Part shown: positions 32,976 to 60,999 of the stretch, piece by piece
Layout: each line of letters begins with the position of its first letter
How positions within the stretch are numbered: position 1 is the stretch's first letter
Assembly: GCA_029227815.1 (NCBI GenBank)
Contig: CP118523.1
Coordinates: 4,395,500-4,459,499 of the forward strand
Direction of reading: 5' to 3'
Source of the DNA: Clostridiaceae bacterium M8S5
GTDB taxonomy: Bacteria; Bacillota; Clostridia; Tissierellales; MCWD3
Length of the DNA: 64,000 nucleotides
The notes under the pieces: generated by a model
The model's input: only the letters and a program-made list of their open reading frames with translations
What the model was told of the DNA's origin: nothing
Databases searched by the model: none
Program-made: the position numbers and the translations under genes

Positions 32976-34694
32976 TTAGCTTCTATCTGTGTAGTGTGTA
33001 TGAAGTAATTCGTGTGACACATGACTTAATGGCTTTTCTAAAAATTCTTCATATAACACAGCTACTGCAGGATTCTTGTGAGATTTTCTAATCTCTGAAT
33101 TTCCATCTATCTGATATATTCCTTTTATTCTATTTTCTCTTATTTCGTTAGTTATAGGTATAGGTTGACCACCTCCACCTATACAACCTCCTGGACAACA
33201 CATAATCTCTATAAAATGAAAATCTTCTTTACCTGATTTGACTAGCTCTAGTATTTCCCTTGCGCTTGCCAGGCTATTTGCTACTGCCACTTTAACATCT
33301 AAATCGCCAACTTTAACTGTAGCTTTTTTAATTCCTTTAAGTCCCCTAACTCCCTTAAATTCAATATTTTCTAGTTCCTCTCCTGTAACTACCTCATAAA
33401 CAGTTCTAAGAGCTGCCTCCATAACACCTCCAGATGCTCCAAATATTACTGCTGCACCTGTTGAAATCCCCAATGGATCATCAAAATTATCTTCTACTAA
33501 TGTATTTATATCAAGCCCAACTTCTTTTATCATCTTAGCTAACTCTCTTGTAGTTAAAACCACATCTACATCCTGATATCCACTATCCGCCATTTCTTTT
33601 CTTCCTGCTTCTGCTTTTTTTGCGGTACATGGCATTATTGAAACTACATAAACATCTTTTGGATCAATACCTATCTTTTTAGGATAATAAGTTTTTGCTA
33701 ACGCACCAAACATCTGTTGTGGTGATTTACAAGTAGAAACATTATCTAAGAATTCTGGATAGAACTGTTCTACAAAATTAATCCAACCAGGGCTACATGA
33801 AGTCAACATTGGCAGTTTACCGTTGTTTTGTATTCTGTGAAGAAGTTCATTTCCTTCTTCCATGATTGTCAAATCGGCTGTAAAATTTGTATCAAACACA
33901 GCGTCAAACCCTAAATGCCTAAGTGCTGTAACTATTTTACCTGTTACTATACTTCCTGGCGGTAAACCAAAATCCTCACCTAATGCAACTCTTACTGCTG
34001 GAGCTATCTGTACAACAACATGTTTGCTATTATCATCTAAAGCACGCCAAACTGTGTTAATATCACTTTTTTCATATAATGCTCCTACTGGACAAACATT
34101 AATACATTGCCCACAATAAACACACTTAGTATCAGCAAGCCCCAAAGAAAAAGGTGTATCTATTCTCATATCACTACTTCTATGAACATTGTCAATAGCA
34201 CCTATACCCTGCACTTCATGGCATACTTCTACACATCTACCACATTTAATACACTTGCTTAAATCTCTAACTATAGATGGATTAGAGCTATCTATAGGCA
34301 AATATTCAACTGTTTTTTCTAGTTTATACTCTCTTATATTTAGTTCATTACATAACTGCTGCAACTCACAATTTCCGTTTCTAACACAGGCAAGACATTC
34401 TGCGTTATGATTTGATATAATCATTTCAACTATTGCTCTTCTTGCATCTCTTACCTTTTTAGTATTAGTTTTTATGACCATACCTTCTCTTACTGGCGTA
34501 CAACATGATGCTGCAAGTGTATTTTGTCCTTCTACCTCTACCACACATACACGACAGCTACCTTTTATATGTTGATCTGGATGAAAACATAATGTTGGTA
34601 TTTTTACATTTACCATTTTTGCTGCATCTAATATAGTTGTTCCATCATCCACAGAAACAGTTTTATTGTCTATAGTCAAATTTATTTTACTCAT
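32976..34694 (-). CDS. hydA: [FeFe] hydrogenase catalytic subunit (HndD/HydA-like): an N-terminal 2Fe-2S domain, 4Fe-4S ferredoxin domains and an H-cluster domain
   Basis: H-cluster motifs L1 TSCSPGW, L2 MPCTAKKAEA and L3 EIMCCPGGCIGGGGQP; 572 aa. Confidence 0.85.
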   Translation of the reverse strand: MSKINLTIDNKTVSVDDGTTILDAAKMVNVKIPTLCFHPDQHIKGSCRVCVVEVEGQNTLAASCCTPVREGMVIKTNTKKVRDARRAIVEMIISNHNAECLACVRNGNCELQQLCNELNIREYKLEKTVEYLPIDSSNPSIVRDLSKCIKCGRCVEVCHEVQGIGAIDNVHRSSDMRIDTPFSLGLADTKCVYCGQCINVCPVGALYEKSDINTVWRALDDNSKHVVVQIAPAVRVALGEDFGLPPGSIVTGKIVTALRHLGFDAVFDTNFTADLTIMEEGNELLHRIQNNGKLPMLTSCSPGWINFVEQFYPEFLDNVSTCKSPQQMFGALAKTYYPKKIGIDPKDVYVVSIMPCTAKKAEAGRKEMADSGYQDVDVVLTTRELAKMIKEVGLDINTLVEDNFDDPLGISTGAAVIFGASGGVMEAALRTVYEVVTGEELENIEFKGVRGLKGIKKATVKVGDLDVKVAVANSLASAREILELVKSGKEDFHFIEIMCCPGGCIGGGGQPIPITNEIRENRIKGIYQIDGNSEIRKSHKNPAVAVLYEEFLEKPLSHVSHELLHTHYTDRS

Positions 34695-35979
34695 TTATTA
34701 TCGCCCCCTTATCGAACAGACAACTGTTTGCTCTACATTCCTTGTTAATATGCTCTTTAATCTCATCTTTAAAATACTGTAAACAAGATATCACAGCTGT
34801 AGGAGCGGCTTGCCCTAGTCCACAAAGGGAGGCCGTCTTCATTACTTCGCAGATTTCTTCTAATATCTCTACATCTTTCTCTGTAGCAACACCTTTGGTT
34901 ATCTTATGCAATATCCTTACTATATGTCTATTTCCCTCTCTACATGGAGTACATTTACCACAAGACTCATGTTTAAAGAACTCCATAGTTGCTAATAAAA
35001 AGTCTAACACGCACACACTATCATCAGCCACAAACATTGCTCCTGAGCCTAAGCTTACTCCGTTCTCTCTCAAGCAATCAAAGTCTATCTTTATATCTAG
35101 TAAATTCTCTGGAATACAGGCTCCTGAAGAACCTCCTAGTTGTACAAATTTAACTTTTTTATCCGTATCCATTCCATCGCATAAATTATTTATTATTTCT
35201 CTTAAGCTAATTCCAAACTCTATCTCAAATACTCCTTTATTCACTACATTACCTGATACAGATATGAGTTTTGTTCCACTACTTGATTTTGTTCCATATT
35301 CTTTGTATTTCTCTGCACCTAAATTGAGTATAACAGGTATATTAGCTAGAGTTTCAACATTGTTAACAAGCGTTGGTTTGTTCCAAAGCCCTGCTACTGG
35401 AGGATAAGGTGGCTTAAATCTAGTCCTTCCTGCTTTTCCTTCTATTGATTCAATTAGTGCAGTCTCTTCTCCACATACATATGCACCAGCACCCGATCTA
35501 ACTTCTATATCAAAATCAAAATTAAACCCAAATATATTAGTTCCTAAATAACCTGCTTTTCTTAAAACATCTATACTCTTTATCAAAAGTTCTTTTGTCT
35601 TAGGATACTCTCCCCTTATATATATATATCCCTTAGTCGCTCCAACTGCGTGACCACAGATTATCATACCCTCTATTATTTGAAATGGACTTCCATCTAA
35701 TAACACTCTGTCTTTAAATGTGCCAGGTTCACCTTCATCTGCATTACATATAACATATTTTATAGGCGAATCTTCAGATGCTGTAAACGACCACTTTAGT
35801 CCAGTTGGGAAAGCTGCTCCTCCTCTACCTCTAAGGTTCGACGCTTTTACCTCATCTAGTACTTCCTGTGGCTTCTTTGAAAGTGCCTTCTTAGTAGCAC
35901 TAAAACCACCATTGCTTTCATATTCAGTTATGGATAGTGGATCTATCTTACCACACAATTTAGATATCAAATTTACCAT
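34687..35979 (-). CDS. NuoF-like NAD(P)H-binding flavoprotein subunit of the hydrogenase (HndC/HydB-like, short form)
   Basis: NADH dehydrogenase 51-kDa family motifs (GRGGAAFPTG, the FMN site, and a C-terminal 4Fe-4S motif CGKCTPCREG); 430 aa. Confidence 0.8.
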   Translation of the reverse strand: MVNLISKLCGKIDPLSITEYESNGGFSATKKALSKKPQEVLDEVKASNLRGRGGAAFPTGLKWSFTASEDSPIKYVICNADEGEPGTFKDRVLLDGSPFQIIEGMIICGHAVGATKGYIYIRGEYPKTKELLIKSIDVLRKAGYLGTNIFGFNFDFDIEVRSGAGAYVCGEETALIESIEGKAGRTRFKPPYPPVAGLWNKPTLVNNVETLANIPVILNLGAEKYKEYGTKSSSGTKLISVSGNVVNKGVFEIEFGISLREIINNLCDGMDTDKKVKFVQLGGSSGACIPENLLDIKIDFDCLRENGVSLGSGAMFVADDSVCVLDFLLATMEFFKHESCGKCTPCREGNRHIVRILHKITKGVATEKDVEILEEICEVMKTASLCGLGQAAPTAVISCLQYFKDEIKEHINKECRANSCLFDKGAIINE

Positions 35980-36449
35980 TACTCCACACCTTCTTTCAAG
36001 TCGTTTATAATTTGCATTGCTCTATTAACAGTCAAATTACCATACACTTTATCATTAACTTTTATAGCCGGTGCAACATCACAAGCTCCAAAACAGCTCG
36101 TATATTCAAGAGTAAATAACTTATCTGACGTAGTATCTCCCATCTTTATTCCAAGTACTTGCTCAAACGCATTTGCAATAGCTTTTCCTCTATTTATATA
36201 ACAGGGCCCACTATTACATATCTGTATCAAATATTTACCTCTTTCTTTTGTAGATAGCATAGAATAAAATCCTGCTACGCTGTAAGCTTTACTAAGAGGT
36301 ACATTTAATTCCTTTGAAATATCTCTTAGAGATGTTTCGCTGATGTAATTACCAGGTGTCTGTGACTGTACCTCTATTAACACTTCTAACAGTTTATCTT
36401 GAGTATTACCCACTTTGTTTATGGCTTCCATTACCACTTTGGATTGCAT
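35979..36449 (-). CDS. NuoE-like [2Fe-2S] thioredoxin-fold subunit (HndA/HydC-like)
   Basis: Cys motif C..C...C..C (CNSGPC...CFGAC). A GGGAGG RBS precedes the ATG at 36449; the ORF track start at 36467 is probably too early. Confidence 0.75.
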   Translation of the reverse strand: MQSKVVMEAINKVGNTQDKLLEVLIEVQSQTPGNYISETSLRDISKELNVPLSKAYSVAGFYSMLSTKERGKYLIQICNSGPCYINRGKAIANAFEQVLGIKMGDTTSDKLFTLEYTSCFGACDVAPAIKVNDKVYGNLTVNRAMQIINDLKEGVE

Positions 36450-36502
36450 AATATATCCTCCCTTCAACTTTTAAACATGATTATTTACTCTTCATTAAAT
36501 AA

Positions 36503-36862
36503 TCATAGCTTAATTAACCATTCATTAATCGGCTCATCATACATACTATGCGATATTATTATCGCTCTAGCCATTTTCTGATTTACGTATTCATATGTGT
36601 ATTTTTCGCCCTCTGGAGTGTATATGTCTAACAACGGTTCCCTACAGCACATTCCAATACATCCTGTAGTTTCAATTATTATATTATCTAATTCAGCTTG
36701 TTTTACAGTCTCCTGCAAACTGATTAAGACATCGTTAGCACCAACGCTAACGCTACAGATAGAGTATCCTAATACCGCTCGAAATTTTCCTGATGGTCTT
36801 TTTTTATCTATAGCTTCTAGTGCTTCACTCCTTAATTGTTGATATGACGTTACTATAGACAT
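36503..36862 (-). CDS. Small thioredoxin-like [2Fe-2S] ferredoxin subunit (HndB-like)
   Basis: 119 aa; TGCIGMCCREP motif; first gene of the operon. Confidence 0.6.
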   Translation of the reverse strand: MSIVTSYQQLRSEALEAIDKKRPSGKFRAVLGYSICSVSVGANDVLISLQETVKQAELDNIIIETTGCIGMCCREPLLDIYTPEGEKYTYEYVNQKMARAIIISHSMYDEPINEWLIKL

Positions 36863-36896
36863 AATGTAACCTCCTTTTATAATTTATCTAAATATA

Positions 36897-36914
36897 TTGC
36901 AACTACTGTGCCAA
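36897..36914 (-). promoter_or_regulatory. Sigma-54 (-24/-12) promoter TGGCAC-agtag-TTGCA on the minus strand, ~35 nt upstream of the first hydrogenase-operon gene
   Basis: The plus strand reads TGCAActactGTGCCA. Its reverse complement is a perfect match to the RpoN consensus TGGCAC-N5-TTGCW, correctly spaced before the AGGAGG RBS and the ATG at 36862. Confidence 0.8.
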
Positions 36915-37024
36915 ATTTTTCTATTAGTTCAAATTTTAATTTTTTGAGTCACAGAGCTGTAATTTACTAATAAATAAAGAAAGGCTAATATTTTAGACTT
37001 TCTTTGGTAATTTTTACCTAAATG

Positions 37025-37052
37025 CATACTTGCATTTAATCATGCACAAATG
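37025..37052. promoter_or_regulatory. Candidate enhancer (UAS) for the sigma-54 promoter: inverted repeat AATGCAtactTGCATT followed by TCATGCACAAATGCATT. A near-identical 17-mer, TCATGCATAAATGCATT, recurs at 37527-37545.
   Basis: Palindromic TGCA-containing repeats ~120-150 bp upstream of the -24/-12 element; the second copy overlaps the regulator's last codons. Confidence 0.45.
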
Positions 37053-37522
37053 CATTATTTGAGCTTTACAGTACTACTATTGGTTAAACTTAATCTTACT
37101 AATAAAATTATTTATTATTCGCAATATTTTTTCTTCTCACTTTAGAGAATTAAGCATCATATTTTACATTAAAAAACGTTTTCATTTAAGTTATTATAAT
37201 AATTCGCACATGCTCTATTTTCGATTTGATCTTTGGATTGTTTAAGTCAAAGCTCATGATTAAATTTAGTAAATATCCTTTTAATTTATTTTAGAATATT
37301 CTGATTTTTGATTTTTTATTGCGAGTTGCACAAAAATAATCATATCAAAGACAGATAAAATTTTTGATTAAATTTTAATATTGATTGCAATTTATATAAA
37401 TCCCTCTTTACTGTAATTTTTGAACCTTTACTACAAAACAAAAGAAGTACTCAAATAATGAGTACTTCTTTTTATTACCCTCAGTTTAAATTTATTTAAG
37501 CTAATAACAGCTCTAATTAATT

Positions 37523-40180
37523 CTAATCATGCATAAATGCATTGTTTTTAAAATATTTTTGTATTTTTCTTACTACTGTGGATTGATTAACTTTTAAAAC
37601 TTGTGCTATTTCATAGGTTGTCCTGTATTTTTTGTATGCATTCTCAATCAATTGTTTTTCTAATAGCTCTATTGCTTCTTTAAGTGGAATAATTCCGTTA
37701 ATATCTATTTTATTAGCATTTCTAAGGTTCTCCATAAACAAAAATGCTGGCAAATCATTCTTATCTATTGTATCATTTCTAGTGGTTACTATTAGTCTCT
37801 CTATTAAATTCTCTAGTTCCCTAACATTCCCAGGCCAATCGTAAGTTTTTAAGATTTCTTCTCCTTGGCTAGTTATTTTTTTAGAGCAACTGTATTTATT
37901 ATTGTATATGTTAAGAAAATAATAACAAAGCGGTAATATATCATCAACTCTTTCTCTAAGTGGAGGTATGTTTATTGGCACAACATTTAGTCTATAATAT
38001 AAATCTGCTCTAAATGTCCCCTCCTTAACCATTTGGAACAAATCTCTATTGGTCGCGGCTATTATTCTTACATCTACATAAATTTCCTTTGTTCCTCCTA
38101 TTCTTATAAGCTTTCTTTCTTGTAAGACTCTTAATAGCTTAACTTGTATATTAAGAGGTAATTCTCCTATCTCGTCTAGGAAAAGTGTCCCTTTATCTGC
38201 TATTTCTATTAATCCTGGTTTTCCACGCTTAGATGCGCCTGTGAATGCACCTGTTTCATATCCAAAAAGTTCTGATTCTATCAAACTTTCTGGAATGGCT
38301 CCACAGTTTATCTTAACCATGGGAATATCTTTTCTTCCGCTAAGGCTATGTATGAATTTTGCAATTACTTCTTTTCCTACCCCTGATTCTCCTAGTATAA
38401 GTATTGTTGAATCAACACATGCTACTTTGCTTGCTGTCTGCAGTACTTTACCGAACTCAATACTGTTTGCAACAAGATTTGCATTGTTCGTCACATTGTT
38501 ATACATTTCTTTTTTATCATTTTCAATATTAAAATATTTTTGTAACTTCTTTGTCTCATTTAGTTGCTCTCTAAGCTTAATTAATTCTTCAATATCTCTT
38601 ATATTCGTGACAACTCTAGCTATATTGTTACTTTCATCAAAAACAGGTGTAGCTGTTGCTAAATATTGATTTGAATTAAACGAATTTTGTATAAATGATA
38701 TTCTTCTCTTTTCTTTTAGTACTAGGAGTGTTCCTGATGGGAATATTATGTTATTATTCTCCATTTCTAGTACATTGTCTTTCTCTCTATCAAACCCGAT
38801 CATGTTTTTCCATGCTTTATTCGTCTTTAATATTTTGCCTTGCCCATCTGTTACCATCATCCCATCATACGAAGATTCTATTATCGTCTCAAGCTCTTCT
38901 TTTAGTGTAGTAATCTCTTTTAATCTTCCCGATATCTCCTTTAATAACTTAGTCTTTTTGTTGTTCAGATAAGGAAGGCACATCTCAACTTCTGCAATAC
39001 CTTGCACAACAGCTACTGCTTTGTCTCTACATGTGTTGTATCCACATGCCCCACAATTGAGTTGATCTTTTTCCGTTTGCTTATCTGTTAGTTTAAGTAC
39101 CTGATCTATTTCTCTTTCCGACGGATATGGCATTATACTTCTTCTGTTAGTGAACGTCCTTTTATAGTTAATTTCTGTATCTAACTCTACTGCATTTTTT
39201 ACGTATTTTCTATTATTGTAGAATTTTTTTATTGTATGTAATTTCTCAAACATACTAAGATCACTATCTATTTTACATCCATTTATACAACCATTACACA
39301 TAAGCACATCTACAAATTTAAAAGTAAATTTTCCTTCAAGAAGTGAATCTACAAGTTCAAAGCATTCTTCCTCACCATCAATATATATGTAATCTTCATT
39401 TATTAGGCTGTCGTCTTGTTTAAACACATTCTTAATCATTCCACCTGATAGAGGGAATAATCTGCCATTTCTATTACCAACAACATCAAACTCTTGCTCA
39501 CTTGACTGCCTTATATTGATTTTATTTTTTATAAAAAGCCTTTTAAGCTCCTCAAATGTTAAGGCACAATCTATTACACCACTATTTTGAAATTCCATAG
39601 CCTCAGCTTTTTTAGCAACACATGGTCCTATAAATACTATCTTTGTATCATCCTCTGGGTATTTTTTTCTTATTATTCTACCAGTGCTTATCATTGGAGA
39701 TACAAAGGGTAACAGATTATCAATAAGCTCAGGATAATGCTTTTCTATCATCGTTGTAAATGCTGTACACGCAGTACTAATATATGTTTTCTTATCATTA
39801 TCAGATATGTAGTCTTTTACTCTATTCGATAGCTCTTCTGCTCCAAAAGCTACTTCCCATACTTCGTCAAACCCTAATTCTTTTAAAGCACCTACTACTT
39901 TTTTATATGAAAACGTATGAAAACTTACGACAAAAGAAGGAGCTATACAAGCAACTATTCTCTTATTTTGTTTTAGAATGTTTTGGCATCTTGTCTCACT
40001 ATCTAGGACAATTTTAGCATTTTGAGGACAACTGCTTATACACTTACCACAGTTGATGCATCTAGAATACATTATTTCTGCTTGTCCATTTTTTATCTGA
40101 ACAGCTTTAACTGGACAATTTCTAACACATGCATAACACTGTTTACACTTGTTTTGTGTCACACTTATTATATTTTTCAT
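37523..40180 (-). CDS. Sigma-54-dependent enhancer-binding protein with an N-terminal 2x[4Fe-4S] ferredoxin plus [FeFe]-hydrogenase-like (H-cluster-type) sensor domain, a central PAS-like region, an AAA+ sigma-54 activator domain and a C-terminal Fis-type HTH
   Basis: N-terminal CxxCxxCxxxCP x2, then hydrogenase large-subunit-like motifs (STACTAF, GPCVAKKAEA, LMCNGCINGC). The AAA+ part has Walker A GESGVGKE and a GAFTGA-like GAFTGASKRG. The HTH is C-terminal. An AGGAAAGGTG RBS precedes the ATG at 40180. Confidence 0.8.
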   Translation of the reverse strand: MKNIISVTQNKCKQCYACVRNCPVKAVQIKNGQAEIMYSRCINCGKCISSCPQNAKIVLDSETRCQNILKQNKRIVACIAPSFVVSFHTFSYKKVVGALKELGFDEVWEVAFGAEELSNRVKDYISDNDKKTYISTACTAFTTMIEKHYPELIDNLLPFVSPMISTGRIIRKKYPEDDTKIVFIGPCVAKKAEAMEFQNSGVIDCALTFEELKRLFIKNKINIRQSSEQEFDVVGNRNGRLFPLSGGMIKNVFKQDDSLINEDYIYIDGEEECFELVDSLLEGKFTFKFVDVLMCNGCINGCKIDSDLSMFEKLHTIKKFYNNRKYVKNAVELDTEINYKRTFTNRRSIMPYPSEREIDQVLKLTDKQTEKDQLNCGACGYNTCRDKAVAVVQGIAEVEMCLPYLNNKKTKLLKEISGRLKEITTLKEELETIIESSYDGMMVTDGQGKILKTNKAWKNMIGFDREKDNVLEMENNNIIFPSGTLLVLKEKRRISFIQNSFNSNQYLATATPVFDESNNIARVVTNIRDIEELIKLREQLNETKKLQKYFNIENDKKEMYNNVTNNANLVANSIEFGKVLQTASKVACVDSTILILGESGVGKEVIAKFIHSLSGRKDIPMVKINCGAIPESLIESELFGYETGAFTGASKRGKPGLIEIADKGTLFLDEIGELPLNIQVKLLRVLQERKLIRIGGTKEIYVDVRIIAATNRDLFQMVKEGTFRADLYYRLNVVPINIPPLRERVDDILPLCYYFLNIYNNKYSCSKKITSQGEEILKTYDWPGNVRELENLIERLIVTTRNDTIDKNDLPAFLFMENLRNANKIDINGIIPLKEAIELLEKQLIENAYKKYRTTYEIAQVLKVNQSTVVRKIQKYFKNNAFMHD

Positions 40181-42180: not shown

Positions 42181-42655
42181 AAAGTATCAAGGGTTTATAA
42201 GATGAAAGAAATACAAGGCATTAAAATGTTTTGTAAAGAACGTTGTACGTGAATTTTTTGATTTACAAAAAATAAGTAACCAAAAAACTAATAGGCGTTG
42301 TATGTCGAGTGAAGTGCAAGGAACATAAAAAATTCTAGTGAATGAGCGTACTAAGGACGTGATTGAACTAATTACTACCGAAAAGGGTTTATAAGAGGAA
42401 TGAGCATACTTAGTATGTATGACTTAAAAATTTTGATTTACAAAAAATAAGAAACCAAAAATTATCTATGATGAGTAAAGTGCAAGGAATAAAAAAATTT
42501 CAGTGAATGAGCGTATTTTAAGATACGTGATTGAACTAATTGCTACCGAAAAATCCCAAGGGTTAATAAGATGAGTGAAGTACAAGGCATTTAAATATTT
42601 TAGCGAGTGAGCGTACTTAGGTACGTGAATGAACTAAAAATTTAAATAACGCAGT
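42181..42655. repeat. Degenerate tandem repeat array (4-5 copies of an ~85-nt unit containing GAGTGAAGTGCAAGGAA...AGTGAATGAGCGTACttagGTACGTGATTGAACTAATTaCTACCGAAAA, with a recurring ~45-nt AT-rich spacer) immediately 3' of the 5S rRNA gene
   Basis: Read directly. Unit starts lie near 42307, 42471 and 42571, with partial copies at 42190 and 42385. The inner hairpin shows compensatory changes (CGTAC/GTACG versus CGTAT/ATACG). Confidence 0.6.
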
Positions 42656-42687
42656 AATTCGCCATCTTAGAAGGCAAACACAAAAAA

Positions 42688-42803
42688 ACTGGCGACGTCC
42701 TACTCTCCCAGGCAGTCTCCCACCAAGTACCATCAGCGCTAAGAGGCTTAACTTCCGTGTTCGGTATGGGAACGGGTGTGACCCTCTTGCTGTAATCACC
42801 AGA
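42688..42803 (-). rRNA. rrf: 5S ribosomal RNA
   Basis: The reverse complement reads TCTGGTGATTACAGCAAGAGGGTCACACCCGTTCCCATACCGAACACGGAAGTTAAGC...GAGAGTAGGACGTCGCCAG, a canonical 5S. Confidence 0.9.
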
Positions 42804-42855
42804 TTTAAAATAAAATATTAAGTTTGAAGTTAATACCTTCAAAACTACACAGAAA

Positions 42856-47716
<4,861 letters not shown>

Positions 47717-48380
47717 CAAAATAAAAATTTATCCTAAAGTTAATTTCTTAACTTTCTTACTCTTTTAACGAATTGACTTCGTTTTGTTTCTGGCTTTGCA
47801 CTGTTCAATTTTCAAGGTTCAACTTTGCTTACTGCTGTAAGCGACTTCTCTATAATATCATTTTTTTTCATTTTTGTCAAGGACTTATTTTTTTCGATAT
47901 TTTCTTTCGTCCTTGGCTGTTGTTGTTTTTGCCAACTTTTATAGTTTAACCGCATTTTGTGTTCTTGTCAATAGTTTATTGATATTTTTATAAAAAAATT
48001 TGTCTAATAACTTGCTACTGCTGATATATTGTCTTTTAACAGAATCTATATATCATCTTAAATTATTTGTAATATAAACTCTAATACAAAACCAATCCTG
48101 TCCCTATTTTTTTCTTAAACATATTTTTAGATTTTTATTACTTTATTTTAAATTCGTGTTAATCAATTTTATTTTAACATTTTCTTTTTATAGATTGCAT
48201 AAAAATATATAAACTTAATATCTGTAAACGAGTATCTATAAATATATTTCTAAATATGAATAAATAAAAATAGATGTGGTAAAACTTTTATTATTAAATT
48301 TTTTATAGTTTGTATAATTCTACTATTTTTAAAAATTGAATATTGCAACTGATTTGTTGCAAAACTGGTGGGAGGAACAT

Positions 48381-51229: not shown

Positions 51230-52000
51230 TTATTCTTTAATATAGCATATATAATAAACCATTGGCACTATTATAGCTCCACCAATCAAATTTCCAATAG
51301 TAACTGGTATTAAATTATTAGTCCACATTTCAACCCAAGTAAATCCTGCACCTACTAACTTTCCCATTGGTATAAAAAACATATTTGCAACAGAATGCTC
51401 AAAACCTGATAATACAAATAGCATTATTGGGAACCAGCATGTGAAAATTTTCCCTATAACATCTGTTGATGCTGTTGATATCCATACTGCTAATACTACT
51501 ACTATGTTACATAATATACCTCTAGTAATACATTCTACTAATGTTAAATTTACTTTAGCGGTTGCTATTGCTTTAATATTATCTCCCACTAAACCTGCAT
51601 ACAAATTCGTTTTACTAAATATTAATGCTAGTAATACAGATCCTATGAAATTACCTATATAAACTAATATCCAGTTTTTTAACATTTTATTAAGGGATAT
51701 CTTTTTACTCATGAGTGCAATTGTCATAGTGTTGTTTCCAGTGAATAATTCTGCTCCTGCTAATATTACTAACATTAAACCTACTGGAAATACTGATGCA
51801 CCTACAAATTTTGCAAAACCCGCATCAAATTTTCCTAGCGATTGTGTCACTACTAAATATCCATGTGCTCCAAAACCTATAAATGCTCCTGCAAATATAC
51901 CTAACAATATCATCTTTATGCTTGATAATTTTGATTTTTTTACAGAAGTTTCAATTGTTTTATTCGCTATCTCTCTTGGAGTTAATAGCGGTTTTCTCAT
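51230..52000 (-). CDS. focA: Formate/nitrite transporter family channel (FocA-like)
   Basis: FNT-family TM pattern (FAGAFIGFG, GAELFTGN). An AGGGGGA RBS precedes the second in-frame ATG at 52000. Confidence 0.75.
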   Translation of the reverse strand: MRKPLLTPREIANKTIETSVKKSKLSSIKMILLGIFAGAFIGFGAHGYLVVTQSLGKFDAGFAKFVGASVFPVGLMLVILAGAELFTGNNTMTIALMSKKISLNKMLKNWILVYIGNFIGSVLLALIFSKTNLYAGLVGDNIKAIATAKVNLTLVECITRGILCNIVVVLAVWISTASTDVIGKIFTCWFPIMLFVLSGFEHSVANMFFIPMGKLVGAGFTWVEMWTNNLIPVTIGNLIGGAIIVPMVYYICYIKE

Positions 52001-52108
52001 AAATATTCCCCCTTGCATTTTGTATACAGTAAAGCATTAACGCTTTACCAAGTTCTAGTGTTTTTTAGACATTTATAAATATTCAATACTTTTATAGAAT
52101 ATCATATA

Positions 52109-52939
52109 TTAAGTATCTTTGTTAAGTTTAAATTTTCTATCAATTAATATATTGCCACTTTGTGTGTATACATTCATTTTGTTACCTCTCGCAAAACCAA
52201 TTAATGTTAAATTTAAAGATTTTGCTATCTCTATAGATAGATTTGTTGGAGCTGATTTTGAAACCACAGCAGGTATGTTTATTTTGGCTGCTTTTATCAC
52301 CATATCAGATGATAATCTGCCACTTGTAACTATATATTTGTCTTTGACCTCTAAATCATTCAATATTATATATCCTATTATTTTATCTATTGCATTATGT
52401 CTACCTATATCTTCTTCAAAAACTATTATTCTATCATCGATGCATAAACCACAACTATGAACGCCCCCTGTTTCTTTAAATAGTTGAGATTGAGTTGTGA
52501 ATTTTTTCATAACTCTACTAACTTTACTATTATTTATAATAATGTTACTTGTATTTATTTTTGAATTAAATGAATCTAGCTCATTATAAAAAATTGTACC
52601 TTTACCACACGACGATGTTATAGTTTTTTTAGAGTATAATTTATAACTAAACTCTTTAAGTGATACATATATTAACCCCTTCTCTTCTAATATATTTATA
52701 GCTAAAATATCGCTTTTTTTCTTTATTAATTCCTCTACAAAAATATACCCAACGGTTAGATATTTTATAGATTTTGGAGTACATAATAAAGTTACAATCT
52801 CTTTATCATTTACAAATATAGTATATGGTTTTTCAACGATGATTTCATCTTCTTTAAATATTGATCTATTTTTATTAATCTCCAAAATCTTGTATTTTAC
52901 TTTTGTTTTCATCACTTGACCTCTACTTTTATTTGGCAT
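52109..52939 (-). CDS. fdhD: Formate dehydrogenase accessory sulfurtransferase FdhD
   Basis: Conserved Cys-containing segment (SSCGKGT..) and a C-terminal SGRLSSDMV; 276 aa. Confidence 0.8.
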   Translation of the reverse strand: MPNKSRGQVMKTKVKYKILEINKNRSIFKEDEIIVEKPYTIFVNDKEIVTLLCTPKSIKYLTVGYIFVEELIKKKSDILAINILEEKGLIYVSLKEFSYKLYSKKTITSSCGKGTIFYNELDSFNSKINTSNIIINNSKVSRVMKKFTTQSQLFKETGGVHSCGLCIDDRIIVFEEDIGRHNAIDKIIGYIILNDLEVKDKYIVTSGRLSSDMVIKAAKINIPAVVSKSAPTNLSIEIAKSLNLTLIGFARGNKMNVYTQSGNILIDRKFKLNKDT

Positions 52940-53567
52940 TATGAATATATATGTTCAAATCTTCTTTTGTGTTTAAATTTATAAACATACTTAGGTCGTT
53001 ACTATAGTTTCTTGCTACTTTTTCTTCTATATATTCACATTTTATTTTTTTTACAAATGAATGTATTGAATTGCTATTTTTTAAAATATGTTCTTCTAAC
53101 TGAGTGAGTATGGATACATTATAGAAAGAGTTTAATGGCTCTATCCACTTTCCGTTTTTTGTTATACATGCGCTTATATCTTTACTGCAAATTCTTCTTT
53201 TCATAAATCTAATGTATTTTAGATTTATATTTGGCATATCACATGCTATAAAATATACGTATTTACTCTTTGCTTCTTTTAATCCTTTGTGTATACCACT
53301 TAAAGGTCCTTTTCCTATAATTTCATCTCTATATATTCTTATATTTTTATTTTTATTGTAATTTGGTTTATTTGTAATGATTATTATATCATTGAATTCG
53401 TCTTGAAGCTTACTTGATATGGTATCCAGTAACCTAACATTGTTTATTTTTAATGTTTGTTTATCAAATCCCATTCTTTTGCTTTTTCCTCCAGCCAATA
53501 TAACACATGTGCCAAAATCATCACTCATAAATAATCCCTCTTCATGTATATTCGTATATGTTAACAA
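52929..53567 (-). CDS. mobA: Molybdenum cofactor guanylyltransferase (MobA-like)
   Basis: N-terminal VILAGGKSKRMGFDK nucleotide-binding motif; 212 aa. Confidence 0.75.
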   Translation of the reverse strand: MLTYTNIHEEGLFMSDDFGTCVILAGGKSKRMGFDKQTLKINNVRLLDTISSKLQDEFNDIIIITNKPNYNKNKNIRIYRDEIIGKGPLSGIHKGLKEAKSKYVYFIACDMPNINLKYIRFMKRRICSKDISACITKNGKWIEPLNSFYNVSILTQLEEHILKNSNSIHSFVKKIKCEYIEEKVARNYSNDLSMFINLNTKEDLNIYIHNAK

Positions 53568-56239
53568 ATCTTTTTTATACTTACTGCACTTACTTTTAGT
53601 TCAGGAATTTTACAGATTTCATCCAAATGATTCCCTGTCAGAACATTTGCTGCACCTTGAGCAAAATGAAATGGCATAAAAACAATTCCCCGAGCTATTG
53701 TTTTTACTATCTTGACCTTAGTTTTGATAACACCTCTCCTTGATGAAACTTCCACAATTTCAGCATCTTTTATACAGTATGCTTTTGCATCTAATTCATT
53801 AATCTCTATATATGATTCTGCTGATTTTTTGTTAAGTCCCTCTACTCTACCTGTCATACTCCTTGTATGATAATGGTATAAATTTCTACCAGTAGTCATA
53901 ATAAATGGATAGTCACTGTTTGGTGTTTCAGCGCTTTCTTGATGCTCTTGGGGTAAAAATAGTCCTTTTCCTCTCACACAATGCCCCTCATGCAAAAACT
54001 TAGTACCTTTATGCTCTTTGTCTAAACAAGGCCATTGTAATCCTTTGTTCTCTATTCTACTATAGTCAATCCCTCCATATTGTGGAGTCACTTTTGCTAT
54101 TTCTTTCATTATCTCAGAAGCATTATCGTATGTTTGACTGTATCCAAGCTTATTCATTATTTCCATTATTATTTTCCAATCAGCTTTAGATTCACCAACT
54201 TCAGTAATAGCTTTTCTCACTCTCTGTATTCTTCTCTCTGTATTTGTAAATGTTCCATCTTTTTCAGCAAATGAACTTGCCGGGAGCACAACATCAGCAA
54301 ACATTGCTGTTTCTGTTAAAAATATATCTTGTACTATTAAAAACTCTATGTTTTCTAATGCTTTTCTGACATGTTTTGTATCTGGGTCGGATACAATAGG
54401 GTTTTCTCCCATAATATATAATGCCTTTATATTTCCATCTACTGCACCATCCATGATTTCTGGTATGGTGTAACCTATGTCATTTGACATATCATCTACT
54501 TGCCATGCTTTTTTGAATTTTTCTATTACCTTTTCATCATCAACCTTTTGATAGCCCGGGAAATTATTTGGTAAGGCTCCCATATCACATGCCCCTTGAA
54601 CATTATTCTGCCCTCTTAATGGATTAACTCCAGCCGATTCTATACCAACGTTTCCACATAGTAATGCTAAATTTGAAACGCTCATTACTGTATGTGTCCC
54701 TGTTTTATGTTGCGTTATTCCCATTGCGTAATATATTCCCGCATTATTAGCCTGGGCATAAATTCTAGCAGCTCTTTTTATATCATTAGCATCTATCTCA
54801 CAAATTTTGGCTACTTTTTCTGGAGTATAGTTTTTAACTAAATCTACTAATTTTGCGTATCCCTCGGTCTTCTTTTTTATGTAGTGTTTATCTTCTAGTT
54901 CCTCTGTAATTATGACATACATCATGGAATTCAAAAGAGCTATATTAGTTCCTGGCTTGATTTGTAAAAATACATCAGCATCTTTAGCTAAATCTATTTT
55001 TCTAGGATCTGCTACTATTAATTTTGAACCTCGCTCCTTTGCTTGGAGTATTTTTGAGCCAATTACTGGGTGATTTTCTGTTGTATTTGAGCCTATAACA
55101 AAAATAGCTTCATTATTTATAATTTCACCTATACTGTTTGTCATTGCTCCACTACCTAAAGTTGTTGCAAGACCTGCAACTGTTGATGAATGTCAGAGCC
55201 TTGCACAATGATCAATATTATTTGTTTTCAATACTCCTCTGAAAAGTTTTTGGAATAAATAATTTTCTTCATTAGTACACCTTGCGCTACTTAAACCTGC
55301 TATAACTTTTGACCCATGTTTTTTTCTTATTATATTAATATTTTTTGCTATCGTAGCGTATGCTTCTTCCCACTCTGCCTCGATTAATTTACCCTCTTTA
55401 CGTATAAGTGGTCTTTGTAATCTATCGTCATGATTAATAAACTTATACCCAAACTTACCTTTAACACATAAAAGTCCATCATTTGAGTGTCCTTTTATTG
55501 GATTAACTCCAACTACTTTTTCTTCTTTTACTAATAGCTCCATCTGACAACCTACTCCACAATAAGAACATGTAGTTTTGACTTTTTTTACCTCCCACAA
55601 TCTAAACTTTTCTTTTGACTTAGGTAGTAAAGCACCTACAGGACAAATTGATACACAATTTCCACATGATACACATGTTGAATTGTTGATGTCGTCTTCA
55701 AAAGGCGCACTTACATGTGTTTTGAATCCTCTTTCACTAAATGATATAGCTCTAGTATGTTGTAATTCATTGCATACCCTAACACATTTGCCACATTCGA
55801 TACATTTATTAAGCTCTATAGTGAAAAATGGATTGCTATCATCTAATTCAAATTCTTTTCTTTCTCCATAATAAGACGTCCTATGTACATCATATTCATA
55901 GCAGTATTGCTGCAACTTACATTCCCCTGATTTTTTACATGTTAAGCAGTCTTCTGGATGATTTGATAAAATCATATCTAATATATCACGTCTTGCATCC
56001 ATTACCTTTTGGCTATGGGTCTGTATCACCATTCCTTCTATGGCTATAGTAGAGCATGATGTTGATAACGTTTGCATGCCTTCTATCTCAACTACGCAAA
56101 GTCTACAGGCGGAATGTGGTTCTAATCTGTCATCATGGCAAAGTGTCGGAATTTTGATATTTAATCTTCTGCATATTTGAAGTATAGTTTCTCCTTTTTT
56201 CGCCTGTACTGATTTTCCATTGATTTCTAAATTTATCAC
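53561..56239 (-). CDS. fdhA: Selenocysteine-containing formate dehydrogenase catalytic subunit (FdhA/FdhF-type) with N-terminal 2Fe-2S and 4Fe-4S ferredoxin domains. A single reading frame with an in-frame TGA (Sec) at 55193-55195.
   Basis: Across the TGA the frame reads ...[33 protein letters not shown]..., matching the FdhF ARV-U-HGPSVAGL Sec region. The molybdopterin oxidoreductase 4Fe-4S motif CSYCGVGC is present, and a SECIS hairpin follows the TGA. Confidence 0.85.
55160..55192 (-). promoter_or_regulatory. Bacterial SECIS element: hairpin GUUGCA-GGUCU-UGCAAC, 12 nt downstream of the UGA
   Basis: The mRNA reads UGA CAUUCAUCAACA GUUGCAGGUCUUGCAAC, nearly identical to the E. coli fdhF SECIS apical stem-loop GGUUGCAGGUCUGCACC. 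Confidence 0.8.
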
Positions 56240-56526
56240 CTATGCTACCTCCTTTTAATGATTATCAGTTTATTCGGTGTCATGATGCTCTGATACTGGT
56301 ACAGGTTCTACTCGATACATTTGAATAAATTTAGAGGATATAATATACTGTATACACCATGTTAAAATTATAACATTATAAGTTGCTAATTACAATCATT
56401 TTAATACACATAATAAGATGCTAATATCTCAATATGTCTATATAATCATATATATTTAATTTATGGTTAAGTTTTTAGGTGGTTATTATTGATATTTTTT
56501 TATTAAAGTTTGTTAATACATACCAT

Positions 56527-56775
56527 CTATTCGTCGTAAATTTCACCTTTTATTAACACTCTTCCATTGTCTGGACATCTAAACCTAAACATTTTACATT
56601 TCTTAGATCCAAAATCTAGATTACCTCCATTTAATAGTGTATATACATTTGGATAAATACATTGCCATAATTCATGACATATAGGTGGGCATAAATCTTC
56701 TACTATAAATGTATCTCCTTTTTTATGATAGCCTGACCTACATTTACTTTCTAACACTTCTAATTTTACTTTCAT
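56527..56775 (-). CDS. Small Cys-rich protein (TIGR04076-like)
   Basis: 82 aa with CxxxxHxxxG..C, CPPICHELW and a C-terminal Cys pair. Confidence 0.5.
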   Translation of the reverse strand: MKVKLEVLESKCRSGYHKKGDTFIVEDLCPPICHELWQCIYPNVYTLLNGGNLDFGSKKCKMFRFRCPDNGRVLIKGEIYDE

Positions 56776-57010
56776 ATTGTTATTTAATTCCTTTCTATTG
56801 TGTATTAATTAAAACAGCTCATTTGATATAGTTAATTACAATTATATGATATCATGAATCTTTTAAATTATTTAATAAATATTTCATTGTAAATTTTCCT
56901 TTTATCTCTGCTTCCTTTATAGTTAACACAAATAATCCCCTTTTACAAAGACCTACTATCTTATAGGTTCTTCACAAAGGGGATTAATAACCTTATAATT
57001 TTAATATATT

Positions 57011-58765
57011 CTACAGTGGATATATATCTCTTTTTACATAATGAGTATGAAGTAAATCATGTGCTTTATGACTATTTGGCTTTTCAAAATACTCATCGTA
57101 TATTTTCTTAATCATTGGGTTTTTATGAGATTTTCTTATTACTTTTGCCTCATCTTCATTATATAACGCTTTTGCTCTTTCTCTTCTAACGTCTACATTC
57201 ATTTTAACTTTAGAACTAACATGTGGTTGTCCACCACCATTTACACAACCGCCAGAACAACCCATTACTTCAATAAAGTGATATTGCTTTTCGCCAGATT
57301 TAACTTTTTCTAATAATTCACTTGCACAACCTGTACTATGTGCTACTGCAATATTTACATCTAAGTCGCCAATTTTAATTGTAGCTTCTTTTATTCCTTC
57401 TGTTCCTCTTACCTGTGTGAAGTTTATTTCTTTTAATTCTTCGTTTGTTAATACTTCATACACTGTTCTTAACGCAGCCTCCATAACTCCACCTGTAGCA
57501 CCAAATATTACTCCTGCTCCTGATGATTCACCTAATATTGAATCAAAGTCTTCATCTGGTAGATTTACAAAATCTAAACCTGCTTGTTTTATCATCTTAG
57601 CGAACTCTCTAGTTGTCAATACTGCATCAACATCTTGATGTCCATTACAAGCTAATTCTTCTCTTTTTGCTTCGTATTTTTTAGCTGTACAAGGCATTAT
57701 TGAAACTACATATATCTTAGATGGATCTATATTGTTTTTCTCAGCATAGTAAGATTTAACTACTGCTCCTAACATTTCATGTGGAGATTTACATGTTGAT
57801 AAATTGTCTAGGAACTCTGGATAATAATGCTCACAGTATTTTATCCAACCTGGTGAACATGATGTAATCATCGGTAATTTGCCACCATTATTTATTCTAC
57901 CAAGTAATTCTGTTCCTTCTTCCATTATTGTTAAGTCAGCTGCAAAATCTGTATCAAATACTTTATCAAATCCAAGTCTTCTAAGGGCAGCTGCCATTCT
58001 ACCAGTTACTGACGTACCCATTGCTAACCCAAACTCTTCTCCAAGTGCTGCTCTAACCGCTGGTGCTGTTTGAACTACTACATGTATATCTTTATCTTCT
58101 ATAGCATCCCATACATAATCTATCTCAGTTTTTTCTCTTAATGCTCCTACTGGACATGACACTATACATTGTCCGCAATTTATACATGGAGTATCTCCTA
58201 TTTCTTTATCAAAAGCTGGTGATACAGTAGACTCGAAGCCTCTATTTGCATAGTTTAGTACCCCTATTTTTTGAACATCATTACATACACTTACACATCT
58301 ACCACACAAGATACATTTATTTGGATCCCTTACTATTGAAGGTGATGATGTATCTACTGGTCTTATAGTTTTTTCACCTTTAAACTCTATATCTGTTACA
58401 CCTAACTCTTCACAAAGTGTTTGTAACTCACAGTTATGGTTTCTACTACAAGTTAGACATTCTCTATCATGATTTGATAAAAGTAATTCTAAGTTTGTCT
58501 TTCTTGCCTCTCTGATTTTCTTGGTATTTGTTCTAATAACCATACCTTCACCAACTTTGGCAACACATGATGCTTGTAAAACCCTAGCTCCTTCTACATC
58601 TACTAGGCACATTCTACAGGCTCCTGTCTGGTTTACATCTTTTAAATAACAAAGAGTCGGTATTTTAATTCCAGCACTATTTGCTGCTTCAAGTATAGTA
58701 TATTCTTCTGGAACTTGAATTGATTTATTATCTATAGTAATGGTAACCATACCCATCATATACAC
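57011..58765 (-). CDS. hydA: [FeFe] hydrogenase catalytic subunit HydA (bifurcating HydABC / HndD type)
   Basis: L1 TSCSPGW, L2 MPCTAKKYEA, L3 EVMGCSGGCVNGGGQP, with N-terminal 2Fe-2S and ferredoxin domains; 584 aa. Confidence 0.85.
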   Translation of the reverse strand: MYMMGMVTITIDNKSIQVPEEYTILEAANSAGIKIPTLCYLKDVNQTGACRMCLVDVEGARVLQASCVAKVGEGMVIRTNTKKIREARKTNLELLLSNHDRECLTCSRNHNCELQTLCEELGVTDIEFKGEKTIRPVDTSSPSIVRDPNKCILCGRCVSVCNDVQKIGVLNYANRGFESTVSPAFDKEIGDTPCINCGQCIVSCPVGALREKTEIDYVWDAIEDKDIHVVVQTAPAVRAALGEEFGLAMGTSVTGRMAAALRRLGFDKVFDTDFAADLTIMEEGTELLGRINNGGKLPMITSCSPGWIKYCEHYYPEFLDNLSTCKSPHEMLGAVVKSYYAEKNNIDPSKIYVVSIMPCTAKKYEAKREELACNGHQDVDAVLTTREFAKMIKQAGLDFVNLPDEDFDSILGESSGAGVIFGATGGVMEAALRTVYEVLTNEELKEINFTQVRGTEGIKEATIKIGDLDVNIAVAHSTGCASELLEKVKSGEKQYHFIEVMGCSGGCVNGGGQPHVSSKVKMNVDVRRERAKALYNEDEAKVIRKSHKNPMIKKIYDEYFEKPNSHKAHDLLHTHYVKRDIYPL

Positions 58766-58793
58766 CCCTTACTTTTATTATTTTTATATTTAA

Positions 58794-60587: not shown

Positions 60588-60630
60588 CTTTCTACCCCCT
60601 TTAGAATTAGAGTTGTTTATTTTTATTTAA

Positions 60631-60999
60631 CTACTTTTCATATGCTCCTACAGTATACTCTGTTACAACGTTGCCGTTTACAATATGTTCAGCTATAACC
60701 CTTTTCGCTTTTTCTGCATCCATGTGTACATAGGTAACTTTCTCTTCACCTGGTTTAAATACTTCTACTATTGGTTCTAAACGACAAACGCCAATACAGC
60801 CTGTTTGATTTACTACAACATCGTTTAAATTTCTTTTATTTACTTCTTCTAGTAATGCAGTTAGAACAGGTCTTGCTCCAGCTGATATACCACAAGTTGC
60901 CATACCTACTATTATTCTAGTTCCGTTACTATCTTGTCTAAGTTGAATCTTCTTTTTAGCTTCTTCTCTAATTTTCTTTAATTCTTCAAGAGATTTCAT
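60631..60999 (-). CDS. HndB-like small [2Fe-2S] thioredoxin-like ferredoxin subunit
   Basis: 122 aa; TGCIGVCRLEP motif. Confidence 0.6.
   Translation of the reverse strand: MKSLEELKKIREEAKKKIQLRQDSNGTRIIVGMATCGISAGARPVLTALLEEVNKRNLNDVVVNQTGCIGVCRLEPIVEVFKPGEEKVTYVHMDAEKAKRVIAEHIVNGNVVTEYTVGAYEK

Follow-up and report, generated by a model that had tools for sequence, protein, structure and literature searches.

A 64-kb stretch of the Clostridiaceae bacterium M8S5 genome (positions 4,395,500 to 4,459,499 of contig CP118523.1; hereafter the window, numbered from its first letter) encodes an 885-residue protein that we read as a one-component sigma-54-dependent activator with a group C sensory [FeFe]-hydrogenase as its input module, controlling the hydDCBA operon directly downstream. 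We put the probability of this reading at roughly 0.7. It is carried by the architecture of the protein, the conservation of its cluster ligands, its fold, a sigma-54 promoter and repeated palindromes ahead of the operon, and the co-conservation of regulator and operon. New here is a sigma-54-linked, one-component form of sensory [FeFe]-hydrogenase with a predicted operator and a predicted regulon of one operon.

Architecture and sensory signature of the regulator

The gene is an uninterrupted frame of 885 codons on the minus strand, starting with an ATG at 40180 behind a GGAAAGG ribosome-binding site and ending with a stop codon at 37523-37525. Its translation is identical over the full length (100%) to an NCBI protein of strain M8S5, which is labelled merely "sigma 54-interacting transcriptional regulator". 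A preliminary description, made from the DNA letters alone, had noted this frame at 37523-40180 without giving a strand, and the frame proved real. A plus-strand reading was rejected, since the frames on that strand are full of stops. The G+C content of the window is 31.5%; the source genome measures 4.68 Mb, and gene context was analyzed within the 64-kb window.

Pfam annotation returned Fe_hyd_lg_C, PAS, Sigma54_activat and a helix-turn-helix (HTH) domain of the HTH_50 family, the domains that had been proposed from motifs (Table 1). The quoted motifs (two copies of CxxCxxCxxxCP, STACTAF, GPCVAKKAEA, LMCNGCINGC and GESGVGKE) are all present, and the element described as "GAFTGA-like" is there too, as an exact GAFTGA rather than a likeness. 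The preliminary description had missed a Cx2Cx4Cx16C motif between the H-cluster domain (H-domain) and PAS, a hallmark of sensory hydrogenases.

Compared with the sequences of the PDB, the sensor part aligned with [FeFe]-hydrogenases only, pairing STACTAF with TSCCPSW, GPCVAKKAEA with MPCIAKKYEA and LMC-NGC with MACVGGC. The AlphaFold model of the sensor (residues 70-545, predicted local distance difference test score, pLDDT, 80.7) gave the same answer: the top 50 structural matches in the PDB were all [FeFe]-hydrogenases (probability 1.0, E-values down to 1e-16), including 8a6t, 7p5h, CpI and CbA5H. The region might have turned out to be "only ferredoxin-like", an outcome named beforehand as fatal to the proposal; instead, it matched the full Fe_hyd_lg_C profile, and sequence and model together indicate that an H-cluster fold and cofactor pocket exist in the regulator.

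Column counts refer to 45 aligned full-length homologues with 46-78% identity to the window protein. The four H-cluster ligands C138, C187, C295 and C298 (CpI C300, C355, C499 and C503) were invariant, as were the counterparts of the [2Fe]-subsite residues CpI K358, E361 and P231 (here P81) and of S323-P324 (S161-P162); the counterpart of CpI S232, S82, was serine in 44 homologues and threonine in one. At the proton-relay position (CpI C299; A137 in the window protein) we found Ala (19), Pro (18), Thr (4), Ser (3) and Asn (1), and Cys in 0 of 45. The CpI M353 position was glycine in 45 of 45 (G185) and the M497 position leucine in all (L293). Deletion has removed the segment of CpI E279, and the positions matching E282, R286 and S319 are unconserved. 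The real L3 motif is L-x-C-x-G-C with CxxC spacing, one residue short of the Cx3C of group A. The earlier view that LMCNGCINGC retains its cysteines stood for the invariant C295 and C298 and fell for the third, C302, which is unconserved (Pro 32, Ala 8, Cys 2, Val 2, Thr 1). Outside the H-domain, the four cysteines of Cx2Cx4Cx16C were invariant, and the eight of the ferredoxin domain were present in 43-44 of the homologues with a gap in the remainder, two members having shortened N-termini.

Two N-terminal [4Fe-4S] clusters, a C-terminal Cx2Cx4Cx16C and then a PAS domain define group C (M2f) (PMC8163306, PMC13104023), and the Cx2Cx4Cx16C motif is common to M2e and M2f sensory-type hydrogenases (Land et al., PMC8163306). 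The published group C spectrum has Ala (about 43%) and Cys (17%) at position 299 and Gly, Ser or Thr at position 353 (PMC10055695), and the published traits of TmHydS and TamHydS are those of the residue pattern described here (PMC10055695, PMC8163306). The window protein combines the fold with its four cysteine ligands, the lost proton pathway, the glycine at the M353 position and the module order of group C (M2f) HydS-type proteins. It fell short of the group A family models, scoring 108 bits where TIGR02512 requires 406 and 208 where TIGR04105 requires 450. A catalytic group A [FeFe]-hydrogenase was rejected on these scores, on the motifs STACT, GPC and CxxC and on the missing proton-relay cysteine. 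The input module has the sequence signature of a complete group C (HydS, M2f-type) sensory [FeFe]-hydrogenase, and the earlier suggestion of a sensory rather than catalytic domain is borne out by ligand cysteines that never vary and a relay cysteine that never occurs in the 45 homologues. We predict that the regulator carries an H-cluster and that its reaction with H2 is one of low turnover.

In the C-terminal half, Sigma54_activat (PF00158, residues 570-736, E = 6.6e-70) is followed by AAA_lid_14 (residues 742-818). Walker A (GESGVGK, 597), GAFTGA (644-649) and Walker B (LDE, 668) are in place, as in sigma-54 enhancer-binding proteins generally, and the GAFTGA columns are intact in the 45 homologues. 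The HTH domain, together with predicted upstream sites near a -24/-12 promoter, also fits a sigma-54 activator. The full-length AlphaFold model (pLDDT 83.2) shows a five-stranded sheet at residues 440-529 within the PAS domain and a disordered linker (residues 545-567) ahead of the AAA+ domain; the long helix between the C-terminal cluster and the PAS domain is a candidate signalling helix. No HisKA/HATPase_c, MCP signal, PP2C or receiver domain was found in the regulator by Pfam at E-values up to 0.1. The protein thus stands outside the histidine-kinase-, chemotaxis- and phosphatase-linked forms of group C (C1 to C3), its output being Sigma54_activat plus HTH. The histidine-kinase-linked sensory forms correspond to HydDB subgroup C1.

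The hydDCBA operon, its promoter region and their conservation

The adjacent hydrogenase operon named in the preliminary description consists of four genes, hydDCBA, downstream of the regulator on the same minus strand (32976-36862). HydA belongs to the NCBIfam family "NADH-dependent [FeFe] hydrogenase, group A6" (924 bits, cut-off 765), and its best PDB match is the HydA1 chain of T. kivui HydABC (8a6t_A, E = 9e-199). The short HydB lacks two domains, the [2Fe-2S] one at the N-terminus and the ferredoxin one at the C-terminus; the HydB of a second hyd operon in the window has 597 residues. For hydC, the ATG at 36449, behind a GGGAGG site, is the most likely start. The hydD-like gene is conserved as the first operon gene in close relatives (syntenic genes of 118-119 residues in loci L081-L083), and phmmer matched its product to equivalent small open reading frames (ORFs) of other hyd operons. 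The subunit sequences mark the enzyme as an NAD(H)-linked hydrogenase of the HydABC type, presumably an accessory one.

Upstream of the operon lies the sigma-54 promoter element TGGCACAGTAGTTGCA, the sole exact TGGCAC-N5-TTGCA among three window matches to the looser pattern TGGC-N8-TGCW. Two tandem AATGC-N6-GCATT palindromes are located 108-143 nt upstream of it, and a distal copy overlaps the end of the regulator gene. The ATGCA-N4-TGCAT core occurs three times in 64 kb against 0.06 expected, each time between the last codons of the regulator and the promoter. This layout matches that of a classical enhancer-binding-protein promoter, and the tandem palindromes are the predicted upstream activator sequence, or operator, presumably bound by the regulator itself. 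The regulator-operon spacer measures 660 bp in the window (36863-37522) and 207 bp in Abyssisolibacter, the closest relative (L081, 2900-3106); because of the extra AT-rich DNA in the window, about 470 bp separate the palindrome at the stop codon from the tandem pair. A search for Rex boxes (TTGTGAA-N4-TTCACAA, up to 3 mismatches) gave no signal, with 5 matches in the window against 7.45 expected.

The full-length homologues listed make up more than 120 clusters, with sources in Abyssisolibacter, Caloranaerobacter, Wukongibacter, Alkaliphilus, Lucifera (Negativicutes), Thermovenabulum, Tepidanaerobacteraceae, Peptococcaceae and many metagenome-assembled genomes (MAGs). Orthologous loci came from eight exact-protein look-ups and, for L002, L003 and L046, from a genome-contig scan with a sensor-only alignment; most of the matches listed by that scan were distant relatives of the kinase-linked kind, not the closest orthologues. 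In 8 of 8 look-ups, and likewise in L002, L003 and L046, the regulator stood directly upstream of hydC/(hydD)/hydB/hydA and shared their strand, and the genes flanking this unit differed from locus to locus. Co-conservation of regulator and operon, which the preliminary description had left to be checked, was seen in 11 of the 12 orthologous loci inspected, the exception being L001. Regulator, palindromes, sigma-54 promoter and hyd operon were kept together in 11 loci other than the window, ranging from Clostridia to Negativicutes and Halanaerobium.

In each of 12 loci, AATGC-N6-GCATT was present in the spacer two to four times (up to 1 mismatch), and the first copy was often at the stop codon of the regulator. 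Thirty of the 40 matches in about 250 kb fell within the roughly 4 kb of regulator-hyd spacer, and in every spacer a GG-N10-GC sigma-54 element preceded the first hyd gene by 36-150 nt. It is because of this phylogenetic footprint that AATGC-N6-GCATT is the predicted operator. HydB of the regulated operon varies: the window and its close relatives have a NuoF core of 430 residues, and the distant orthologues (L084-L088, L002, L003, L046) a fusion of about 1010-1037 residues that joins NuoF to a GltD/NfnB-like part (Fer4_20, Pyr_redox_2). Regulator and operator are unchanged despite this variation. Judging from these domains, nucleotide specificity and the ability to bifurcate may not be the same in all the regulated enzymes.

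Table 1. Features of the regulator-hydDCBA region in window coordinates.
Feature	Position	Strand	Basis or remark
Regulator gene, 885-residue one-component sigma-54 enhancer-binding protein with HydS-type sensor	37523..40180	minus	ORF, translation, Pfam
Ferredoxin domain, 2x CxxCxxCxxxCP, predicted 2x[4Fe-4S], residues 7-55	40016..40162	minus	Pfam Fer4_7/Fer4_10
[FeFe]-hydrogenase H-domain, residues 73-301	39278..39964	minus	Pfam Fe_hyd_lg_C, E 1.4e-52, profile 1-244 of 245
Accessory cluster Cx2Cx4Cx16C (C376, C379, C384, C401)	38972..39064	minus	Pfam FeS PF04060, residues 373-403
Long predicted helix from cluster domain to PAS, residues 398-436 (39 residues)	38873..38989	minus	AlphaFold full-length and sensor-only models
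PAS domain, residues 428-532	38585..38899	minus	Pfam PAS, PAS_9, PAS_8
Sigma-54 AAA+ domain and lid, residues 570-818	37727..38473	minus	Pfam Sigma54_activat, AAA_lid_14
C-terminal HTH DNA-binding domain, residues 833-876	37553..37684	minus	Pfam HTH_50; three helices in AlphaFold model
Distal palindrome copy CATGCATAAATGCATT	37528..37543		covers the final codons of the regulator gene and its stop codon
Intrinsic-terminator-like hairpin, 14-bp perfect stem, T-rich tail	37440..37472	minus	3' of regulator gene
Two tandem palindromes AATGC-N6-GCATT (37021-37036 and 37041-37056)	37021..37056		20 bp centre to centre
Sigma-54 (-24/-12) promoter TGGCACAGTAGTTGCA	36898..36913	minus	36 nt before ATG of first operon gene
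hydD/hndB-like gene, 119 residues, first operon gene	36503..36862	minus	no Pfam or NCBIfam match
hydC, NuoE-like thioredoxin-like [2Fe-2S] subunit	35979..36449	minus	Pfam 2Fe-2S_thioredx, NCBIfam NuoE family
hydB, short NuoF-like flavoprotein subunit, 430 residues	34687..35979	minus	Pfam Complex1_51K and NADH_4Fe-4S only
hydA, catalytic group A [FeFe]-hydrogenase, 572 residues	32976..34694	minus	Pfam Fe_hyd_lg_C, Fe_hyd_SSU

The second hydrogenase cluster occupies 51230-61531 on the minus strand and comprises hydC (163 residues), a hydD-like gene (122 residues), hydB (597 residues) and hydA (584 residues), followed by a formate dehydrogenase alpha gene and by MobA-like, FdhD-like and FocA-like genes. 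The formate dehydrogenase frame is split by an in-frame TGA ("...NIDHCARL*") and its profile resumes at position 146, so the enzyme is probably a selenocysteine protein. No sigma-54 promoter was seen for this second hyd operon, none of the three TGGC-N8-TGCW matches of the window lying near 61531. A single degenerate palindrome, AATGAAACTAAGCATT, lies at 61608-61623, about 77 bp upstream of the second hydC, with one mismatch in the core; such a match falls in the range expected by chance (2.8 expected and 5 counted, up to 1 mismatch). A 2-mismatch Rex-box match is present at 62012-62029, upstream of the same operon.

Both catalytic HydA proteins (32976-34694 and 57011-58765) carry TSCSPGW in place of TSCCPxW. 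By the spacing to MPC, this puts a serine at CpI C300, a [4Fe-4S]H ligand, and a cysteine at position 299. The same variant was present in 41 of the 65 ORFs longer than 350 residues that carry this L1 motif in loci L001-L080, and in the HydA1 chain of the HydABC structure PDB 7q4v, whose sequence-identical entry 7q4w is the A. woodii complex. The serine variant was noted without explanation in PMC3787301.

Two further side observations concern neighbouring genes. In L087 (1-15693, a Thermoanaerobacteraceae MAG), a Fer4/Fe_hyd_lg_C/FeS gene of 449 residues, cut at the locus end and possibly a group D-type HydS by its domains, lies beside DRTGG, PHP and HATPase genes, as well as a hydCBA operon whose HydB has 597 residues. 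Right after this hydCBA comes the sigma-54 fusion with its own hydCDBA operon (1014-residue HydB), and two different sensors appear, from this gene order, to control two different hydrogenases side by side. In the window, about 42600-48000 contains short ORFs only, on both strands, with odd-looking translations at 43005-43322 and 44086-44418; this region may be an rRNA operon.

Proposed mechanism and alternative explanations

We infer that H2 (or redox state) is the signal. H2 would react slowly and reversibly at the H-cluster domain, without a fast proton relay, and the redox state of the accessory clusters would track the intracellular H2/H+ couple; the ferredoxin pool might also be read via the N-terminal clusters. 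The redox state of the C-terminal cluster would be passed along the helix of residues 398-436 to the conformation of the PAS domain and on to the AAA+ domain, with the PAS domain gating AAA+ assembly into the active oligomer. The HTH domain would bind the AATGC-N6-GCATT palindromes upstream of hydDCBA, and ATP hydrolysis and the GAFTGA loop would open the sigma-54 closed complex at TGGCACAGTAGTTGCA, switching on transcription of the accessory NAD(H)-linked HydABC-type hydrogenase. For the sign of the response we favour induction by H2, since the [NiFe] regulatory hydrogenase/HoxA system provides an analogy and since the second hydCDBA operon (597-residue HydB), without a sigma-54 promoter, suggests that the regulated enzyme is the conditional one.

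The strongest alternative, which we still regard as unlikely, is a redox sensor of the ferredoxin or iron-sulfur pool, not of H2. The hydrogenase-like domain would then hold [4Fe-4S] clusters only, or act only as an electron relay, and a build-up of reduced ferredoxin or NADH would lead the protein to turn on a hydrogenase that evolves H2. The two N-terminal [4Fe-4S] clusters are the usual entry point of ferredoxin in hydrogenases (PMC8163306), and an NAD(H)-linked HydABC-type enzyme could dispose of reductant. However, the contacts made to the [2Fe] subsite only (the bridging cysteine and the residues that match CpI K358, E361, P231 and S232) are invariant or nearly so in the 45 homologues, which is hard to square with an empty subsite, and a functional H-cluster is bound by TmHydS and TamHydS, two relatives that have been purified (PMC10055695, PMC8163306). 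Since residues that touch the [2Fe] subsite alone do not vary, versions in which the domain is vestigial or carries clusters only are disfavoured. Redox sensing as such overlaps with H2 sensing rather than excluding it, because the H-cluster equilibrates with H2.

A sensor of CO or O2 is far less probable. CO bound to the H-cluster, or oxidative damage to it, would alter the output of the activator, and hydrogenase synthesis would be adjusted on inhibition. Carboxydocella thermautotrophica and Thermincola potens are CO-utilising bacteria. They are the sources of the two family members in a 2019 census of Clostridiales enhancer-binding proteins (PMC6615313), and TamHydS has an unusual CO tolerance and a defined reaction with O2 (PMC8163306). 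On the other hand, the family is widespread in Clostridia and relatives, and in the orthologous loci inspected the conserved target was always a hydrogenase operon and never a set of carbon monoxide dehydrogenase genes. Most of these bacteria are, to our knowledge, fermenters without reported CO metabolism.

We give slightly less credence still to a cofactor-availability checkpoint, in which the apo or holo state of the H-domain, set by HydEFG delivery of [2Fe], gates transcription of the structural hydrogenase genes and limits it to cells able to mature the enzyme. A fully conserved [2Fe] pocket and a low expected turnover would suit such a binding sensor equally well, but the layout of PAS domain and C-terminal cluster is common to kinase, GGDEF and stand-alone forms beside hydrogenase operons in many phyla, which suggests a dynamic signal and not a single check on maturation, and we know of no precedent for a checkpoint of this kind. 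Just as improbable is a PAS domain that, like those of other clostridial PAS activators, binds an unrelated small ligand, next to a hydrogenase-like part that is a degenerate evolutionary remnant: most one-component sigma-54 activators of Clostridiales do carry PAS (PMC6615313) and the C-terminal 455 residues resemble PrdR, yet the 16 cluster-ligand cysteines and the [2Fe] pocket are nearly unchanged at 46-78% identity, and 10 of the 16 sigma-54-linked clusters of the sensor family keep the sensor without having a PAS domain.

Several points nevertheless weigh against an H-cluster-based H2 sensor that controls hydDCBA. The CxxC spacing of L3, in place of Cx3C, puts the geometry of the bridging cysteine in question, and we infer insertion of the [2Fe] subcluster from conserved residues. 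The PAS domain could have a ligand of its own, and the sign of regulation is a guess. Among the ORFs of at least 100 residues in the 64-kb window, there was no CX3CX2C radical-SAM frame in a search for hydE, hydF and hydG, and no rpoN-like frame. The full-length orthologue of L001 (873 residues, Clostridiaceae MAG AS09scLD_371) had no hyd gene in the flanking DNA examined; it is followed by a TrkA-like gene. For TmHydS and TamHydS, too, the sensory role is still called putative in the literature (PMC8163306, PMC8924675, PMC13104023).

The wider sensor family and comparison with known systems

In a scan of 1.84 billion representatives, the sensor part matched 545 clusters at E-values of 1e-30 or lower. 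Output domains were assigned for the best 149 of the 545 by phmmer against Pfam-identified domains, a procedure that places MCP or phosphatase outputs in an "unclassified tail". Stand-alone, HydS-like sensors of about 575 residues made up 75 of the 149 clusters, histidine kinase fusions 44, sigma-54 AAA+ fusions 16 (6 with a PAS domain and 10 without) and GGDEF fusions 3; the sigma-54 fusions of L011 and L022 are PAS-less by Pfam. With 16 of the 149 nearest representative clusters, the sigma-54-fused form is not rare. At position 299 the best 149 had Ala in 40, Pro in 21, Ser in 19, Cys in 18 and Thr in 12, and at position 353 all had Gly, which matches the group C spectrum of PMC10055695 and agrees with a sensory rather than catalytic domain. 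Two relatives carry other outputs: in L017 (9764-12163, Desulforadius tongensis) the sensor module is fused to GGDEF and HD-GYP domains of cyclic di-GMP turnover, and in L027 (8049-10646) to a hybrid kinase that includes a receiver domain. As these domain fusions suggest, the sensing of H2 or redox state may feed second-messenger signalling in some lineages.

The usual place of the kinase-linked sensors is right after hydCBA. In L005, L007, L020, L037 and L071 they are followed by an NtrC-type REC-AAA+-HTH_8 regulator, and the hyd operons of kinase-linked loci L006, L051 and L057 have TGGCA-N6-TTGC promoters, as has the operon beside the PAS-less fusion of L011. From such kinase and NtrC-type loci near hyd operons, the window protein would therefore be the fused, one-component form of a two-component circuit. 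A neighbour-joining tree without support values interleaved the sigma-54 fusions with the kinase fusions, apart from the stand-alone clade, and placed the group D protein TamHydS (its sequence reconstructed from a noisy codon-optimised supplement sequence) outside; this hints at repeated swapping of output domains.

The preliminary description had called this fusion little characterised, and the searchable literature agrees. Fer4, Fe_hyd_lg_C and FeS appear among the N-terminal domains in the census of Clostridiales enhancer-binding proteins, and its supplement contains two such proteins, Carboxydocella CFE_2753 and Thermincola TherJR_2992, with no comment on a regulon, a site or a hydrogenase (PMC6615313). 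Beyond that census table, we found in the searchable literature no mention of a sigma-54 fusion of a sensory [FeFe]-hydrogenase, and no regulon, binding site or experiment. With slightly more confidence than doubt, we propose that the window protein represents the first defined one-component H2-responsive transcription factor, with an H-cluster as sensing cofactor, AATGC-N6-GCATT as operator and a single operon as regulon. It would found a sigma-54-linked subgroup of sensory [FeFe]-hydrogenases, some with PAS and some lacking it, that an exchange of output domains with kinase-linked forms had produced.

The interest of the system lies in its compactness. The whole path from sensor to gene is one polypeptide and one nearby target, and promoter and candidate operator are conserved across distant lineages; a single polypeptide with a defined promoter and operator therefore makes the H2-sensor hypothesis directly testable. 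For HydS, whose role is still putative, the question has been how, or whether, a signal reaches gene expression (PMC8163306, PMC8924675, PMC13104023). If our reading is true, the fusion would supply the missing genetic read-out for HydS-type H2 sensing and a compact part for anaerobic H2 biosensors. It would also indicate how fermentative anaerobes may choose among several HydABC-type hydrogenases, which bears on H2 transfer in anaerobic communities.

The closest known sensors are the group C (M2f) HydS proteins of Thermotoga maritima and Ruminococcus albus. They share with the window protein the order 2x[4Fe-4S], H-domain, Cx2Cx4Cx16C and PAS, the loss of the relay cysteine (Ala here, A131 in TmHydS), the glycine at the M353 position (TmHydS) and a gene that adjoins a group A hydrogenase operon. 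However, HydS ends after the PAS domain (about 575 residues) and needs partners for signalling, whereas the window protein continues into AAA+ and HTH domains; its M497 position is Leu as in group D TamHydS, not Ser, and its L3 spacing is CxxC. The literature on HydS-type proteins describes the PAS domain and nearby kinases or AraC regulators. The sensor modules of kinase-linked sensory [FeFe]-hydrogenases are 36-43% identical to that of the window protein, and among L005, L007, L006, L051 and L057 some have the NtrC-type neighbours and some the TGGCA-N6-TTGC hydCBA promoters. Their signal passes by phosphotransfer through HisKA, HATPase_c and REC domains, whereas the window protein has neither kinase nor receiver.

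On the output side, residues 422-876 align with PrdR 128-576 (E = 1e-121), and the two proteins share the PAS-AAA+-HTH layout, described for clostridial activators in PMC6615313, and tandem palindromic upstream sites. The window protein differs in its 420-residue hydrogenase-like N-terminal extension and in its target, a hydrogenase operon and not proline reductase; an identity with PrdR was rejected at 407 bits against the NCBIfam cut-off of 795. NorR, which senses NO with non-haem iron in a GAF domain and ranks with the best NCBIfam matches to the AAA+ part, is likewise a protein in which an N-terminal metal centre gates the AAA+ domain of the same polypeptide, but its centre is a mononuclear iron in place of a whole multi-cluster hydrogenase module.

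The same regulatory logic is known from the HoxBC/HupUV-HoxJ/HupT-HoxA/HupR systems of Cupriavidus and Rhodobacter, in which a low-activity hydrogenase senses H2 and signals through a PAS-containing transmitter to an NtrC-family activator of hydrogenase operons. Related literature on this [NiFe] regulatory hydrogenase system includes PMC5665086 and PMC10073562. Biosensors built on [NiFe] regulatory hydrogenases are under development (PMC10073562), and the window protein could provide their anaerobic counterpart. The two systems have unrelated metal centres and folds, and four proteins with a phosphorelay in the one stand against a single protein in the other. The [NiFe] system is aerobic and proteobacterial, whereas that of the window is anaerobic and belongs to the Bacillota.

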